Positions 1,171-52,512 of a stretch of 64,000 nt of DNA are shown one piece after another. Every line of letters starts with the position of its first letter. The first letter of the stretch is position 1. The stretch lies in assembly GCA_963836045.1 (NCBI GenBank), contig CAWIIC010000016.1, positions 886 through 64,885 on the forward strand, in the 5' to 3' direction. This DNA is from an uncultured Pseudomonadota bacterium (GTDB lineage Bacteria > Chloroflexota > UBA5177 > JAJPKF01). The notes beneath the pieces were generated by a model, which searched no databases, was not told the origin of the DNA, and saw only the letters and a program-made list of their open reading frames with translations. Both the position numbers and the translations under genes were made by a program.

Positions 1171-1731
1171 TTCGAAAATGAGTCGTCCGAGAATAGTCTC
1201 TCATCAATACGGCCCGCGACCCTTGGCCCAGAGGCGCCCATTTCATGCTTCGTGGTGGCCCGTCGGCATGGGTGGCTAGTTCGAAAATGGCGTTTGGAAT
1301 TCTCCACGGCGACCATCGTGCGGTAGCCCGGCGCTCCGTGGCCGGGGGGATGACGGCCGTCGTCAATATTCTGACTTCCCGCCTCAAAACCAAGCGACCA
1401 ACGGAGCCACTTTCATGCTCCGTGTGGCCGCAGGCCATAGCAATCTAGTTCGAAAATGACCGATCCGAAATGACTGTCTCCATAGGCTTACGACCCCGAT
1501 CGGGCTCCTATTTTCATGCTTCGTGGTGGCCCTTAGGCATGGGTGGCTACTTGGAAACGTAGCGCGACATCAATGACGCCCCGGGATGTGGGCTTGGACC
1601 GGTAGGGGCGACATTTATGACGCCCGGCGATGTCGGTGGTCGCATAATGCTGGCGAAGCGAGGTGCAGCGTCTGGAAACCACCAGCCCTACTTTCGTACT
1701 TCGTGGTGCCGGTAACGACATGGATGACTGA
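1171..1731 (+). repeat. Intergenic composite repeat, locus A: type I unit (1171-1279), type II/I hybrid (1280-1448), type I unit (1449-1550), divergent unit with type I-like tail (1551-1731)
   Basis: Units are joined at CTAGTTCGAAAATG. They share CCGARAATGRCTGTCTC...GGCTTA.GACCC...CTATTTTCATGCTTCGTGGTGGCCC..GGCATGGGTGGCTA with copies at 46316-46551, 51017-51222 and 51547-51770. The array ends exactly at the stop codon of the minus-strand GS-like gene (1732). Confidence 0.85.
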
Positions 1732-46315: not shown

Positions 46316-46551
46316 TTCTCAAAATGGCGCTCGAAGCCTTGCCTTCATTAGCCTTCCTGTACACGACGAACCACCCTGACCCGACCGCTATTTTCATGCT
46401 TGGTGGTGCCCATAGCCATGCGAGGCTAACTCGAAACTGCCGTTGAATCCTCCACGTAGACCATCACCGCGACTAGTGTGCTGAGTCTTCCAAGCCCGTG
46501 CGCTCGCGGTCGCTGGAACTGAAAACTGACAACTGAAAACTGACAACTCTC
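46316..46551 (+). repeat. Intergenic composite repeat, locus B: degraded type I unit (46316-46429), type II module (46430-46516), heptamer array (46517-46551)
   Basis: ...CTATTTTCATGCTTGGTGGTGCCCATAGCCATGCGAGGCTAA CTCGAAACTGCCGTTGAATCCTCCACG...GCGGTCGCTGG AACTGAA AACTGAC AACTGAA AACTGAC AACTCTC. Confidence 0.8.
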
Positions 46552-47029: not shown

Positions 47030-50000
47030 TCAAGGCCCCTGCACGATCACGCTCTGGCTCCCGCTTGTGGCGTCGCTCGTGCGGTCGCCGGCGTAGAGCC
47101 CCGCCACTTGCCATGTGCCGGCAGTGAGCGGGCCTCCTGTCGGAGTCGTCAGCGTGTCGCTGAAGCTGCCGTTCGTGTCGGTCTGTGCGATGTCGACCAC
47201 GGGCGCGGAACCGTCCGGCGGCGAATAGGTGATTCGGACAATGCGGTTGGCCAGCGGAGTCGGTCCCCCGGCGGGCGTGACGACGGTGCTGTCGAGTGTG
47301 CCCTGGCAGGAAATGTTGTTCGATCCCGATGAGGAGCACTGGAAGGACTGGAACTTCGTCGCCACTTTGACCGGGTTGACTGTCAGGTCGTAGGTCACTG
47401 TGCGGGTAGAGCCCGCGGACACTGGGTCGCTCGGGGCCGCCGTGATGGTGATCGGGTAGGTTCCCGCGGGTGTGGACGGTGATGTTCGAATGGTCAGTTT
47501 GGAGGACTTTCCGGCCAGCAGAGAGGCCGGCTTGAGGGAGGCAGTGGTCCCCAACGGCAGGCCGCGAATACCGAGCTTCATTCTCAGTAACCTGCCCGAA
47601 TACTGGCTGGTTTGCACCATAGCCGAGACGGATTGGCCCTGGAGTACCGACCCTCCGGAAGGGCCGACCGCGAGCGAGACGACGTTCTGGACCGGCGTGA
47701 CCGGCGGCTGAACCTTGTTGAATGAGCAGCCCTCGAGACAACTGGATCGCAGCGCGGCGAACAGGACCTCGGCCGCTTGACCGCGGGTCACGGCCCTGCG
47801 CGAAGCGTAGGTGTGGAACGCCTGCTTGAGGTAGCCCATCGCCACGCCCTTCTTGATCTTGAGGGTCTTGACGAGACCCGTGACCAGGGCGGCCTCAGTG
47901 ACCGGCAAGTTCTGTCCGCGGGACGACCCGAAGGTCAGGGTCAGCACCCGAGACGGCGCGAGATGCACCATGCCGCCCAGGGCGCCGGCGAGCTCGATCC
48001 TCGTGATCGCCGCTGAGGGCCTGAACGCGTCGTCGGCATTCGCGCTCATGTATCCCAGGTAGGTCAGGACGTCGATCGCTTGGCTCGCCGGGTCACCCGG
48101 GCGCACATCGACGAAGCGTTCGCGGCTGACGGCCTGCCCGTTGACCGTGCCGAGGTAATTGATCGCCAGGTATCGTTTGTAGGTGGCAAGCTTCCCAATC
48201 AAGCTGGGCGATCCCGGAGCGTTGGGATCCTGGTACATGAAGGTGCCGAAGGCCCGATCGAGGTAGACGTTCGCCTCGGGCTGTTGGGGCATCGGGTTGT
48301 GACACTTCGGGCAGCTCGGGCTGGCGGAAGTCGTGTTGTCGAAGTCATTGAGATCCACCGCCGCCGTGGTTTCCTGCGTGGTCGTGTTGGCCGTGGAGTC
48401 AGAGTACTTCGTGTCTTGAGAGTAATCCTCCGATGTCTGCTCCCCCGATGACAGCGTCATAGTCCCCTTCTCCGAGAGCCCGCCGTAGCTCTCAGTGAGG
48501 GTGAAGCCGCCGCCGACGTCGGTGGTATTCACGTCTGAGTATCCGCTCTTGGAGGTCAGGACCGTTCCGCTCCCCTGGGTTGTCTTGTTTGTGTTGTCCC
48601 AGGATTGGGAGAAGTCCAGCGGATTCTTCTCGTTGTACGGGTAGCTGGCTCCATAGCTCCCCACGTTGGGGGAGATTGGGATGCCGCGAGAGGTCTGGAC
48701 ATCCGCGCCCTGCCCTGCCCCGTAGAACGGGTCTAGCGCCAGCAAGTTGGCCGCTTCCTGCGACGTAAGCTCCACGCAGGAGTCCTCCGGAGTTTGGGGC
48801 GGCATGTCGTTGCATGAGGTCGGGTGGTACACCACGTTGCCGTTGTAGGTGATCTCCACCCCGCCGAACTGGATGAGGCACGGATCGACCCCGGCGCTCC
48901 ATTGACCGATACGGCAGTCCTCGAGCTGCAGTACCGAGACGTGGGCCAGCGTAGGTACCGCCGCCTTTGTGATCCACAACGATTGACCCGCGCTGACCTC
49001 GTAGACCCGGTACTGGGTATGAAGATTGAGCAGGAACTCGTCCTCCCAGAAGGGCTCGCCGGTGTACTGCGCTAGCCTCGACGGATGGATCAGGTCCCCT
49101 GTGGAGCAGTCCCAGCTCTGTCCGGTCTGCGCCGGCGGGGCGCAGGTCGAGCCGTCTCCCGGAACGAGGCTGTTGTCGGGGTTGTTGAAGGCCCAGGTGG
49201 TCTTGATCGCTGTAGTGTCGGTGGACTCGTCGGATGACGAGACTGTGCTGCCGAATCCCGCCACCGTGCTGTTGTCCCACTTATATGAATCGCTGAAATT
49301 CACGCCCAGGATGCCGGCGGTTATCGAATCCTCGAATTTGGCGCTGTTGGTCTGGGTGTCCTTGTAGTTGTCGCTGGTCGTGCTGTCGTTACTGAGCTTG
49401 TAATCCGTGCCGAAGCCGAGGTTGGTCGTGTATGACGCCTTGCTGAGGTCCCCGGTTGGGTGGTAGAGGATGGTGTATGGCTCGACCGTCATCTGGGCGT
49501 AGGCGACCGGTGCCCAAATCACGTTGAACCCCTTGGAAAATCCATTGGAGCTGCGGTACAAGGGAGTCCCGCCGTGACTGTCGGTCTCGGACACATACCA
49601 CTGAAAACGATACGTCGCGACGTGGTCCGAATTCGTCTGGCTCGAGTTCGGATCTGGAGCCTGGATTGTAAGGCCACCGTGCGCGGTGCCGTCCCCGCCG
49701 GGTGACGTCAGACTGTCCGACACGTAGGTGCTCGGCACGTCCTCCCAGTAGCCGGTGTTGCCGTCCCAGTTGGTGCACGTGCCGTACTTCTGACTGACGC
49801 CGCTCTCGACGTCACAGACCTGCAAGCTGGCGCCGTACCCCCCGGTGTCGCCCAAATTGCGGTACTGCCCGTTGGACCCCCAGGTGCCGCTCTGGTTCTC
49901 CGGAAACGAGCCGGACTGGTCATTGAAGTACGTGGCTATGTGAAATGTTTGGTTCGGCAGGGCAAAGGGGAGCGTGTCCGGAGGCTGGAACAGCTCCTCG

Positions 50001-50509
50001 TGCAGAGAGCTCGACTCGCTTTGCCACGCCTGGTCGTTGCTGCCCTGACTGTAGAAGTGCGGGTAGGGCCCCCAGACGTCCAGCTCCCCAATGGAATATG
50101 TGAAAGCGGCGGTACTTGCAACCGTTGAGGCGGGACGAATGAGGCACAGGTACTTCACGCAGAGAGTCCCTGCCGGAATGTTGGCATAAACCGGCACGGT
50201 GCTGCCGTCGGGCACGCCGTTAGGAGCGTAGGCTGTAATGGTCGTACTGTTCTTGACCTTGAACGACGCCGACACGTTTCCGAAGAGGACCTGGTTGACT
50301 GCACCCAGTCCGCACCCAGTGATGGTGATGGGTGTGTTGGCTGGACCGTAGTCGGGACTGATGCCGCTGATTACAGCCTTTGTGCACGCATCCCCAACGA
50401 GAGCGGCCTTCACGGCCTGTGGGCTGGTGGCCACTCCCACGACGGAGATGACCACGACTAGTACCGCCAAAATGTGTCGACGACTGCCTGTGGACGACCG
50501 GCTGCTCAT
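47030..50509 (-). CDS. Large secreted cell-surface protein: N-terminal IPT/TIG domain, long Ser/Thr/Gly-rich middle, SLH-like motifs, C-terminal Ig-like regions
   Basis: AAGGAGG upstream. Signal ILAVLVVVISVVGVATSPQAVKA. ISGISPDYGPANTPITITGCGLG..VLFGNVSASFKV.NSTTITAYAP (IPT/TIG). FVDVRPGDPASQAIDVLTYLGYMSA..DDAFRPSAAITRIELAGAL (SLH-like). Confidence 0.7.
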   Translation of the reverse strand: MSSRSSTGSRRHILAVLVVVISVVGVATSPQAVKAALVGDACTKAVISGISPDYGPANTPITITGCGLGAVNQVLFGNVSASFKVKNSTTITAYAPNGVPDGSTVPVYANIPAGTLCVKYLCLIRPASTVASTAAFTYSIGELDVWGPYPHFYSQGSNDQAWQSESSSLHEELFQPPDTLPFALPNQTFHIATYFNDQSGSFPENQSGTWGSNGQYRNLGDTGGYGASLQVCDVESGVSQKYGTCTNWDGNTGYWEDVPSTYVSDSLTSPGGDGTAHGGLTIQAPDPNSSQTNSDHVATYRFQWYVSETDSHGGTPLYRSSNGFSKGFNVIWAPVAYAQMTVEPYTILYHPTGDLSKASYTTNLGFGTDYKLSNDSTTSDNYKDTQTNSAKFEDSITAGILGVNFSDSYKWDNSTVAGFGSTVSSSDESTDTTAIKTTWAFNNPDNSLVPGDGSTCAPPAQTGQSWDCSTGDLIHPSRLAQYTGEPFWEDEFLLNLHTQYRVYEVSAGQSLWITKAAVPTLAHVSVLQLEDCRIGQWSAGVDPCLIQFGGVEITYNGNVVYHPTSCNDMPPQTPEDSCVELTSQEAANLLALDPFYGAGQGADVQTSRGIPISPNVGSYGASYPYNEKNPLDFSQSWDNTNKTTQGSGTVLTSKSGYSDVNTTDVGGGFTLTESYGGLSEKGTMTLSSGEQTSEDYSQDTKYSDSTANTTTQETTAAVDLNDFDNTTSASPSCPKCHNPMPQQPEANVYLDRAFGTFMYQDPNAPGSPSLIGKLATYKRYLAINYLGTVNGQAVSRERFVDVRPGDPASQAIDVLTYLGYMSANADDAFRPSAAITRIELAGALGGMVHLAPSRVLTLTFGSSRGQNLPVTEAALVTGLVKTLKIKKGVAMGYLKQAFHTYASRRAVTRGQAAEVLFAALRSSCLEGCSFNKVQPPVTPVQNVVSLAVGPSGGSVLQGQSVSAMVQTSQYSGRLLRMKLGIRGLPLGTTASLKPASLLAGKSSKLTIRTSPSTPAGTYPITITAAPSDPVSAGSTRTVTYDLTVNPVKVATKFQSFQCSSSGSNNISCQGTLDSTVVTPAGGPTPLANRIVRITYSPPDGSAPVVDIAQTDTNGSFSDTLTTPTGGPLTAGTWQVAGLYAGDRTSDATSGSQSVIVQGP

Positions 50510-51016
50510 GGGATGCCTCCTTTGATAACCAACTGCAGCACACTCAGAACTCAGCTCTCAGCAATTGAGGTCAACCACCTCTGGCCAGCCCCCATGCAAG
50601 ACGCTGGGCTCAGTGGCAGACCTACGACCTTTGTTCGCCACGTACCGAACACCATCCTGTCCCCAAGTGTTCCTCTTCCGTTTCCGGGATGGTCTCACCG
50701 ATGCCCCAGCCTCGATCGTGGCGAGCCGTACTCTCAGGGGACGGTGACCGGCGAACACTGATCGCTACACCGGCGGCGAATGCTTGAGCACCTACTCCCA
50801 AGAGAAGAATGGCCACCGCGACCGTTGCTATGTGCGGTGGCTTTCGCGTCTCGCTTCGTCGCAAATCGGACGACTTAAAAGACAATCCTACACCCATCCA
50901 GGCAACTTGTCAATAGTCAAACTCAGTCACAGAAACGGGTGTCACGACAGCGCGATCGTTGACCATCTCCAGCCGCTCGCTTGCTTTGAAAAGCGCGGCG
51001 ACAGCAAAGCTTCTAG

Positions 51017-51222
51017 TTCGAAAATGAGTGGTCCGAGAATGGCTGTCTCAATGGACGTACGACCCGACCCGGCGCCCATTTTTATGGTTCGTGGTGCCCC
51101 AAAAGGCATGGGAGGCTAGTTCGAAAATGACCGGTCCGAAAATGACTGTCTCAATAGGCTTAAGACCCTCATCCGGCTCCTATTTTCATGGTTCGTGGTG
51201 GCCCAAAGGCATGCGTGGCTAA
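51017..51222 (+). repeat. Intergenic composite repeat, locus C: two tandem type I units (51017-51119, 51120-51222)
   Basis: Each unit runs from TTCGAAAATGA to GGCATG.G.GGCTA(G/A). Each holds an ATG-to-stop reading of 31 codons (ATG at 51024 and 51127). Confidence 0.85.
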
Positions 51223-51546
51223 CGATCCCGACCTCCCGGATATCGGCAGACCTCGTCCTGGATCAACCACCAGCCGCCGAGAAGTTATCCACAATGCTCC
51301 TAAAAGAGCCCTAAAAAGCCGCGGACAGTCCTCTGTCCATGGCCTTTCGCTAACTCCCGTTTTTCGGCGCCAGCATTGGCCCCGCGCCCGACACGCAAAA
51401 ACGTTCACTCGTCCGTCAGCTATAGATACCGACAGAAACGACGGCTTACCGAAATCCTACGCCTATTCGCCCGCCCGCGCGCCACGCAACCCCGGCCCGG
51501 AGCCACACAGACCCAGTCCGCATCCAACCGGGTACCCCAACCACTA

Positions 51547-51770
51547 AATCGACAATGAGTGGTCCGCGAATGGTTGTTTCAAGGGGCTTAAGACCCTGGC
51601 CCGGCCCCTATTTTTCATGTTTCGTGGCGCCCCGAAGGCATGGGAGGCTAACTCGAAAATGGCATCGCAATCCTCCCCGGCGACCACCACCGCGACTACT
51701 ATGGTCTTCCATGCCCGGGCGGTAGCGGTCGCTGGAACTGAAAACTGAAAACTGACAACTGACAACTACT
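51547..51770 (+). repeat. Intergenic composite repeat, locus D: type I unit (51547-51651), type II module with hairpin (51652-51735), heptamer array (51736-51770)
   Basis: Type II module: CTCGAAAATGGCATCGCAATCCTCCCCG GCGACCACCACCGC...GCGGTAGCGGTCGC TGG. Then AACTGAA AACTGAA AACTGAC AACTGAC AACTACT. The CTA at 51766-51768 is the reverse complement of the crp stop codon. Confidence 0.85.
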
Positions 51771-52512
51771 TTGTTTCGGTTTGGGCCTCCAACGCCGCAC
51801 GGTTCGTGACCATCACGCGTCCGCGAGAAGTCTCTACAACGCCCTCAAGCCGCCATCGCCCAAGGATCTCTGAGACAGTCTGGCGGGTGCTTCCGACCAT
51901 ACTTGCCAGCTGCTCTTGCTGGATGGCTATAGGAACGCGACACCCCGGAGGTTGGTCAAGACTAAGCAAGGTTTTCGCAAGGCGGCCCCCCACGTCGAGA
52001 AATCGCGTTGTCCTGATTCTGTCGTCCGCTGCCCTCAGCCGTCGGCTCAGCGCCCGTATCAAGTTGAGCATGGTTTCAGGATGGCTGTAGAGGTGGGCAA
52101 ACAGGTCCTGCCTCGAAATCGTCAATAAGTCTGCTGCTCGCGACACGATTGCCGTAGCCGAGCGCGGCTCGTCGTCTAGAAGGGCCATCTCTCCCAAGAA
52201 GCCGCCAGGCCCAACTTGTCCGAGCGTGATCTGATCTCCCTCGGCAGACCCGAGCACGAGGTCCACCGTTCCGGAACAAACCACGTAGGCTTTGTCTCCG
52301 GCATCGCCCTCTAAGAAGAGAATCTGACCTTTTCGAGCCCTCCTCCGCCCTACGAGGCGAGAAAGCTCGTCCAGGTCGGACGCGGGGAGTCCCTCAAACA
52401 GAGGAAGGGCCGCAAGAGTCGAGGCCGCGTCTTCCCTTTCCGCTTTGCCACCTTCTTTGATACATGAGAATGTAGGCTGATCGTCAGATAACGCTACCGC
52501 ATTGCCGGTCAC
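51766..52512 (-). CDS. Crp/Fnr-family transcriptional regulator
   Basis: 248 aa. LPLFEGLPASDLDELSRLV..RRARKGQILFLEGD.GD.AYVV.SGTVDL...GGFLGEMALLDDEPRSATA (cNMP-binding-type effector domain). C-terminal HTH QEQLASMVGSTRQTVSEILGRW. Confidence 0.85.
   Translation of the reverse strand: MTGNAVALSDDQPTFSCIKEGGKAEREDAASTLAALPLFEGLPASDLDELSRLVGRRRARKGQILFLEGDAGDKAYVVCSGTVDLVLGSAEGDQITLGQVGPGGFLGEMALLDDEPRSATAIVSRAADLLTISRQDLFAHLYSHPETMLNLIRALSRRLRAADDRIRTTRFLDVGGRLAKTLLSLDQPPGCRVPIAIQQEQLASMVGSTRQTVSEILGRWRLEGVVETSRGRVMVTNRAALEAQTETK

Follow-up and report, generated by a model that had tools for sequence, protein, structure and literature searches.

Tandem repeats that read as micro-ORFs in a Chloroflexota genome are probable miniature derivatives of an IS110-family insertion sequence

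Introduction

A tandem array in a 64,000-nt stretch of Chloroflexota DNA (hereafter the window) raises the question of whether its short repeat units are genes, spacers or something else. Read on the plus strand, three units of the window form ORFs of 31-33 codons, each closed by a stop: 51024-51119 (translation MSGPRMAVSMDVRPDPAPIFMVRGAPKGMGG), 51127-51222 (MTGPKMTVSIGLRPSSGSYFHGSWWPKGMRG) and 1178-1279 (MSRPRIVSHQYGPRPLAQRRPFHASWWPVGMGG). At 51 kb, TRF finds a 103-nt unit in 2.0 copies (51013-51221, 83% matches). The TAG stop of the first unit (51117-51119) is followed after 7 nt by the ATG of the second (51127), and a GGAGG (51111-51115) lies 11 nt before that ATG. A first-pass annotation had pointed to these features; the three peptide readings were reproduced exactly and the spacing and the GGAGG are as it described them. 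It offered three interpretations: tandem micro-proteins, MIRU-like translatable spacers or a structured nucleic-acid element. MIRUs are tandem intergenic units of ~50-100 nt, readable as small ORFs in which stop and start codons overlap or adjoin. Their ORFs are oriented with the genes of the flanking operon and translationally coupled to them.

Results

Housekeeping sequences of the genome find their best matches in Chloroflexota MAGs. Iterated nhmmer searches of the whole genome (assembly G000; 5.14 Mb, 60% GC, 16 contigs, here C1 to C16, 89% complete) gave 81 hits for the repeat family, termed Type I, of which 18 are full-length units and were used for the coding tests. A set of tandem genes for micro-proteins of 31-33 residues, each with its own Shine-Dalgarno sequence, would agree with the three intact frames of the window and with the GGAGG 11 nt upstream of the next ATG. 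Against this, the ORF from ATG to terminal stop is kept in only four of the 18 units, three of which lie in the window. None of 23 indel events is divisible by three, and the ATG-to-stop lengths leave remainders of 0, 1 and 2 modulo 3 in 8, 2 and 8 units. Four copies (C6:323528, C8:55111, C1:68589, C1:68691) have acquired in-frame stops by substitution, therefore homopolymer assembly errors cannot rescue the ORF. Depending on the copy, all three frames occur for the 3' half (...YFHGSWWPKGM, ...IFMLRGGP*AW and ...FSCFVAPRRHG), and the tandem pair at 51 kb is 83% identical as DNA and about 45% identical as peptide. The first-pass annotation had proposed looking for a substitution bias between codon positions; there is none, with mismatch rates of 0.144, 0.150 and 0.172 at positions 1, 2 and 3 (chi-square p=0.46).

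No conserved ORF is present on either strand of the Type I units (101-107 nt). The Type I repeats are non-coding and the micro-ORFs themselves are no more than chance; the probability that they are micro-protein genes is close to nil, and tandem micro-proteins at this locus are a false lead, now removed. The two frame-broken units already flagged in the first reading are confirmed, that at 1456 stopping after 5 codons and that at 51554 running out of frame. Its remark that conservation looks nucleotide-level pointed in the right direction.

Like MIRUs, Type I units are tandem, intergenic and readable as small ORFs with adjacent stop and start. Unlike MIRUs, their frame is not conserved and both genes that neighbour the array at 51013-51222 are on the opposite strand: a TIG/SLH protein gene (47030-50509, minus) and a Crp-like gene (51766-52512, minus). 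The genes flanking the second array (1167-1548) are convergent. These orientations lead us to reject MIRU-like coupling for both the 51-kb and the 1.2-1.5-kb arrays.

Five of the partial hits are the ends of ~1465-nt elements of the IS110 group that are at least 99% identical to one another (C13:34812-36276, C8:161980-163443, C4:304894-306358, C4:521827-523292 and C4:523366-524829, all outside the window). These elements carry a 410-aa ORF on the opposite strand (Pfam DEDD_Tnp_IS110, 5e-35; Transposase_20, 2e-19). In three of the five (C4:521827-523292, C4:523366-524829 and C8:161980-163443) the transposase frame is split according to tblastn, reflecting either real decay or homopolymer assembly errors. 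A second transposase gene (C13:33770-34602) is decayed, being frameshifted, truncated and 61% identical over the N-terminal 119 residues; its 5' non-coding left end (LE) terminates in a hairpin of the Type I kind. A similar LE fragment of 294 nt lies at C11:200050-200345. Reverse-complemented units align over ~88 nt, from the terminus inwards, to the LEs of both the pseudo-IS (C13:33770-34814) and the C11 fragment.

Searching metagenomes with a 21-nt pattern from the second guide loop (see below) returned one contig, L289, whereas an exact 28-nt pattern taken from the donor-binding loop of the parent had no match in metagenomes. The parent-type element on L289 has an intact 405-aa transposase, 55% identical to the intact IS110 transposase of the genome, and an RE of 20 nt, AACAGTCATTTTCGAATTAG. 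The contig begins inside the LE hairpin module.

These alignments make it very probable that Type I units are non-autonomous, MITE-like deletion derivatives of an insertion sequence from the IS110 family (IS110 group); their IS orientation runs along the minus strand of the window. A reverse-complemented unit corresponds to the first ~88 nt of the 5' non-coding LE joined to the last ~22 nt (RE tip) of such an element. In IS orientation it opens with the junction AG and the LE-terminal module, CCnCCCATG-hairpin-CACCACGAAGCATGAAAAT, and continues to ...GGTCGTAAGCCTATGGA, taking in the 5' strand of the target-binding domain and its first loop. Next, with nothing in between, comes the parental RE tip GAAACAGTCATTTTCG, and the unit ends with a ~15-nt duplicate of the tip, ...GTCATTTTCGAAyTAG, before the next AG. 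Expressed in terms of the parent-type element, Type I is the L289 LE up to CCTATGGA plus the L289 RE tip, duplicated. The likely origin is thus an internal deletion at the microhomology GGAAC/GAAAC together with a duplicated RE tip. All 18 full-length copies, found on nine contigs, align end to end and possess one common deletion junction, as expected if the copies multiplied once the deletion had formed.

LE homology stops after the first target-binding loop, and the unit has no transposase gene, no left-target guide and no part of the donor-binding domain. Since the transposase and both guide loops are missing, the units are non-autonomous and MITE-like; since the left-target guide and donor-binding domain are missing, they are not bridge RNA genes, which in the IS110 group carry two loops with target and donor guides. 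Both termini are IS110-homologous, the size is small with no capacity for a transposase, the dispersed copies have a single junction in common, and the ends and insertion sites match parental guides with no target-site duplication beyond the shared core. Every unit has an identical CT (AG in IS orientation) at its boundaries, as do the five full IS copies at both of their ends.

The IS110 ends also explain the features that gave the appearance of genes, all of which are reverse complements of conserved end motifs. The ATG arises because the RE-tip box TCATTTTCG, in whose place homologues have tATTTTCA, contains CAT; the second in-frame ATG 15 nt later (M-x-G-P-K/R-M) is present because the RE tip is duplicated. 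The TAG stop is the RE/LE junction (C-T|A-G), and GGAGG corresponds, in reverse complement, to the conserved LE start CCTCCCATG (CCTCC-CATG). Of the earlier interpretations, a structured nucleic-acid element came nearest. Its direction was right, and what it did not specify is that the element would be an internally deleted IS110-family insertion sequence, with the micro-ORFs on the strand opposite the parent's transposase gene.

At 51 kb, unit A (51015-51115, minus) is bounded on its RE side by a CT at 51013-51014. Its duplicated RE tip (reverse complement ...GACAGCCATTCTCGGACCACTCATTTTCGAACT) covers 51015 to ~51049 and its LE part, the first ~66-88 nt of the LE, ~51050-51115. Within the latter, the LE-terminal module (51078-51115) consists of ATTTTTATGGTTCGTGGTG, the hairpin (stem 51094-51098/51105-51109) and CATGGGAGG, or in reverse complement CCTCCCATG-hairpin-CACCACGAACCATAAAAAT, and matches the LE start of IS110 homologues from several phyla. 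Units A and B have in common the CT at 51116-51117, which with the next AG supplies the TAG stop. Unit B (51118-51218, minus) is divided into RE tip (51118 to ~51152) and LE (~51153-51218) with its module at 51182-51218, and ends at a CT at 51219-51220; both units were delimited by alignment to the pseudo-IS LE and to L289. Unit C (51544-51649, minus; CT 51544-51545, body 51546-51647, CT 51648-51649), identified by nhmmer (82 bits) and alignment, is followed by ACTCGAAAATGG, an RE-tip-like sequence.

The other array holds unit D (1167-1277, minus; CT 1167-1168, body 1169-1275, CT 1276-1277) and unit E (1445-1548, minus; CT 1445-1446, body 1447-1546, CT 1547-1548), the latter being the copy with the micro-ORF broken after 5 codons. 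Between them, at 1278-1444 (minus), lies a variant, third type of unit with the RE tip of Type I (AGTTCGAAAATGG...), a degenerate LE module (...CTTTCATGCTCCGTGTGGCCGCAGGCCATAGCAAT) and a different interior of ~110 nt (...GGTCGTCAACATCCTGAC...AAAACCAAGCGACCAACG...). This interior recurs in about nine partial hits, for example C8:176766, C12:36833 and C3:377187. A partial unit at 46365-46428 (minus; nhmmer hit C16:47250-47313) comprises the LE-terminal module only, and many partial hits across the genome share only this 3' module, TTTCATGCTTCGTGGTG-hairpin-CATGGrnGr.

Whether the LE-terminal module belongs to the insertion sequence or to the host was addressed with 80 IS110 homologues of 48-58% amino-acid identity from Paenibacillus, Bacillus, Lachnospiraceae, Dehalococcoidia and Chloroflexia. 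Homologue LEs in Bacillota, Dehalococcoidia and Chloroflexia open with this module, CCCATG-hairpin-CACCA..ATGAAAAT. The 8-mer N of the loop GCCCG-N-TGACC recurs 8/8 immediately 5' of the module at 29 of 45 loci (3.4% in cross-locus controls), and multi-copy sets diverge exactly at the module's 5' boundary. At 38 of 55 homologue loci (controls, 14%), a second loop located after GCACGC agrees with the RE tip in 7 or more of 8 positions. The guide-flank match, the divergence boundary and the second-loop match therefore place the module inside the IS and identify the adjoining flank as target. In this genome, 18 of the 81 module hits (22%) have an IS110 domain less than 3 kb away, where chance would predict about 1.3%.

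RNAalifold applied to 19 LEs predicts a first hairpin and a long-range stem enclosing the second guide domain, with up to nine compensatory changes per pair; the modelled fold corresponds to the two-loop architecture of published IS110-group bridge RNAs. The LE-terminal hairpin also covaries. Bacillota homologues have a TATAAT box downstream of it, and given this position the hairpin may not be part of the bridge RNA. Across the homologues (loci L205-L284) the RE-tip box tATTTTCA is conserved 7-8 nt from the end and forms an inverted repeat with TGAAAAT, a box situated ~40 nt into the LE. The sub-terminal inverted repeat so formed exceeds the 2-3 bp known from descriptions of the IS110 group.

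The units might instead be independent structured RNA genes or cis-regulatory RNAs, for instance a functional truncated 'half bridge RNA'. The covarying hairpin would fit this, as would the pairing of the 6-bp inverted repeat GAAAAT/ATTTTC in single-sequence folds and the retention of the LE start, where the bridge RNA promoter is expected. Set against these are single-sequence folds no more stable than shuffled sequences on either strand (z from -0.3 to +1.5), the failure to predict any sigma-70-like promoter in the units, their decay to 72% mean identity, and the loss of both guide-bearing segments that bridge RNA function needs. Rfam gave no match at the gathering threshold in the window and only chance-level hits at E<=10 in 50500-51800; a tRNA/tmRNA scan found none. 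An apparent plus-strand bias in the G.U-versus-A.C asymmetry of 82 hairpins is mostly due to one invariant G.U closing pair. On balance we consider an independent RNA function very unlikely and favour the deletion derivative.

A host origin, either as REP-like repeats moved by a Y1/RAYT transposase or as pre-existing repeats merely targeted by IS110, has some appeal in that the units are hairpin-containing, intergenic, tandem and modular in the manner of BIMEs, and in that IS110 members are known to insert into REPs. In addition, many MAGs of other phyla contain an exact 17-mer of the module, embedded in a longer conserved motif that is often multi-copy and tandem, and none of 116 such external loci has an IS110 gene within 8 kb. 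About 10 of the 17-mer hits were discarded as chance matches in Bacteroidota thioredoxin-like genes (FHASWCxxC). The only Y1_Tnp (IS200/RAYT-type) gene of the genome (G000 C7:115178-115477), however, has no module of the family within 1.7 kb, and the RAYT/Y1 model is rejected on this lack of association. REP/BIME repeats with RAYTs resemble Type I in being small, hairpin-bearing, modular, tandem and intergenic; Type I differs in having no associated Y1 transposase and ends homologous to an IS110 element. Nor does a targeted host repeat account for a module that is inside the IS in homologues, for copies that diverge exactly 5' of it, or for homology that reaches ~88 nt into the LE and is joined to the parental RE tip at a defined deletion junction. 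The homologue LE comparison, the guide-flank tests and the intact parent L289 led us to reject it, and a host origin of either kind is extremely improbable.

The external loci (L089-L204) show the module with its covarying hairpin and an RE-tip-like TTAGTTCGAAAATAG in units of ~60-100 nt, often tandem and multi-copy. Their MAG labels include Thermodesulfobacteriota, Dehalococcoidia, Acidobacteriota, Pseudomonadota and Ca. Acetocimmeria, among others, and the units frequently lie close to contig ends and beside 7-nt tandem arrays of other sequence. In all probability these are miniature IS110 derivatives of the same kind that have spread across phyla.

Comparison of unit ends with parental guides connects the Type I copies to a bridge-RNA system. 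The RE tip of the units agrees with the parents' second bridge-RNA-like guide loop (CGAATTAG or CGAACTAG), at 8/8 positions in 11 of 18 units and at 7/8 in four more. The T variant, CGAATTAG, is carried by the C13 pseudo-IS and L289 and the C variant, CGAACTAG, by the C11 fragment; both occur among the units. The first guide of the C11 parent, GAGAACTAGCT, also matches the units' RE tip. Half of the units (9/18) adjoin another CGAAyTAGCy tip, and left flanks resemble the first guide at 7-8 of 10 positions in most units. The RE-side flanks of the units show no clear right-target consensus.

We propose that the parental recombinase and bridge RNA would have spread unit copies in trans, with the donor guide CGAATTAG or CGAACTAG pairing with the RE tip of the unit. 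That tip is also matched by one of the parental target guides, GAGAACTAGCT, so that new copies would land directly after resident RE tips and build head-to-tail arrays. Tandem units do share a single CT. Local tandem duplication or replication slippage of one insertion would also yield head-to-tail geometry, the RE tip inside each unit is itself duplicated, and tandem duplication of non-coding units at IS110 loci was reported in a 2026 preprint (bioRxiv 10.64898/2026.08.14.744561). Neighbours, though, are mutual closest relatives in none of the five tandem pairs, each unit having its nearest relative at another locus, and this favours insertion over local duplication. Unit B, for example, is 89.5% identical to the unit at 1447-1546 and 82% to its tandem neighbour. 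Duplication in place is accordingly disfavoured and we regard it as unlikely, leaving repeated site-specific insertion as the preferred account of the arrays.

The units are dispersed at about 12 loci that are without a transposase. Their mean pairwise identity is 72% and the maximum is the 89.5% noted above. The family is probably old and inactive in this genome: old because the copies average 72% identity, and of doubtful current mobility because no intact parent with a Type I-type LE is present in the 89%-complete assembly. All 40 of the relative genomes examined are devoid of the family.

Discussion

Miniature elements related to the IS110 family are already known. In Pseudomonas putida, MITEPpu9 is a short non-coding element flanked by LE/RE-like sequences of the IS110-family ISPpu9; it exists in several copies with and without a transposase, is thought to be mobilised in trans, carries the sRNA gene ssr9 and sits in REPs (PMC12288879). 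Type I is likewise short and non-coding with IS110-family ends, and MITEPpu9 provides the precedent for MITE-like elements in this family. Type I differs in that it appears to be a plain deletion derivative of LE (88 nt) and RE tip, with the tip duplicated and the units arrayed head to tail, and in that its parent, in Chloroflexota, comes from another IS110 subgroup. What Type I usefully adds are three specifics, a defined deletion junction, covariation of guide and end between parent and miniature, and a guide-based account of the tandem arrays. Type I would offer a clean natural case of IS110 miniaturisation in which the ends of the derivative covary with the parental guide loops.

For IS621, a 22-bp donor is enough for recombination when the bridge RNA is supplied in trans (Durrant et al. 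2024, PMC11208160). The Type I parent resembles IS621 (PMC11208160) in its long LE, near-zero RE and shared junction dinucleotide, as well as in two guide-bearing domains, one copying the left flank and the other the RE tip. Type I itself is unlike IS621 in having neither a left-target guide nor any donor-binding domain. The junction dinucleotide is AG rather than CT in transposase orientation, and the Type I subgroup is distinguished by its conserved LE-terminal hairpin and a sub-terminal inverted repeat of 6-7 bp (TGAAAAT/ATTTTCA).

Tandem non-coding repeat units at IS110 loci have been described that keep left-donor (LD, RE-tip) matches at their boundaries; these adjoin a transposase module and were attributed to in-place duplication (bioRxiv 10.64898/2026.08.14.744561). 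Type I units are similarly non-coding and tandem with RE-tip matches at the boundaries, and differ in being dispersed at loci without a transposase and in having tandem neighbours that are not sisters. For the repeats studied here we propose a testable IS110/bridge-RNA origin, in which a guide that matches the unit's own RE tip would account for the arrays.

A broader reading can be entertained, at rather low probability. Far from being inert, the units would serve a large IS110 subgroup that spans phyla as cis elements and as landing pads that renew themselves, the RE tip of every inserted unit restoring the left-target sequence for the next insertion. The LE-terminal hairpin and TGAAAAT/ATTTTCA repeat would then be an undescribed recombinase-recognition or promoter element, and, on the same principle of a guide matching a repeat, bridge-RNA targeting would also account for the unexplained 7-nt tandem arrays beside modules in many phyla.

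A large share of the modular intergenic repeats of this Chloroflexota genome is made up of IS110 left-end fragments, and a second IS110 lineage contributes to them. The repeat at 1549-1745 of the window (minus; ~190 nt, hairpin of the TGTCGGTAACGACA type, no transposase) is the first ~190 nt of a ~340-nt LE of this lineage. In reverse complement it is nearly identical to the LE that precedes the transposases at C5:548312 and C6:41135, with LEs at G000 C5:547950-548300 and C6:41560-41960; the transposase (MEQSYVGIDVCKK...) is encoded at C5:548312 by an intact frame of 429 aa. The start of this LE also occurs without a transposase, in about 25 copies scattered over the genome.

Three of the five ~1465-nt IS copies sit inside CTGAMAA heptamer arrays, in register with them. 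The first guide loop of these copies, GCCCG-ATTGTCAGTC-TGACC, matches the LE-side array sequence GTTGTCAGTC. The in-register copies tie the heptamer arrays to bridge-RNA targeting and offer a lead for a published but unexplained class of repeat.
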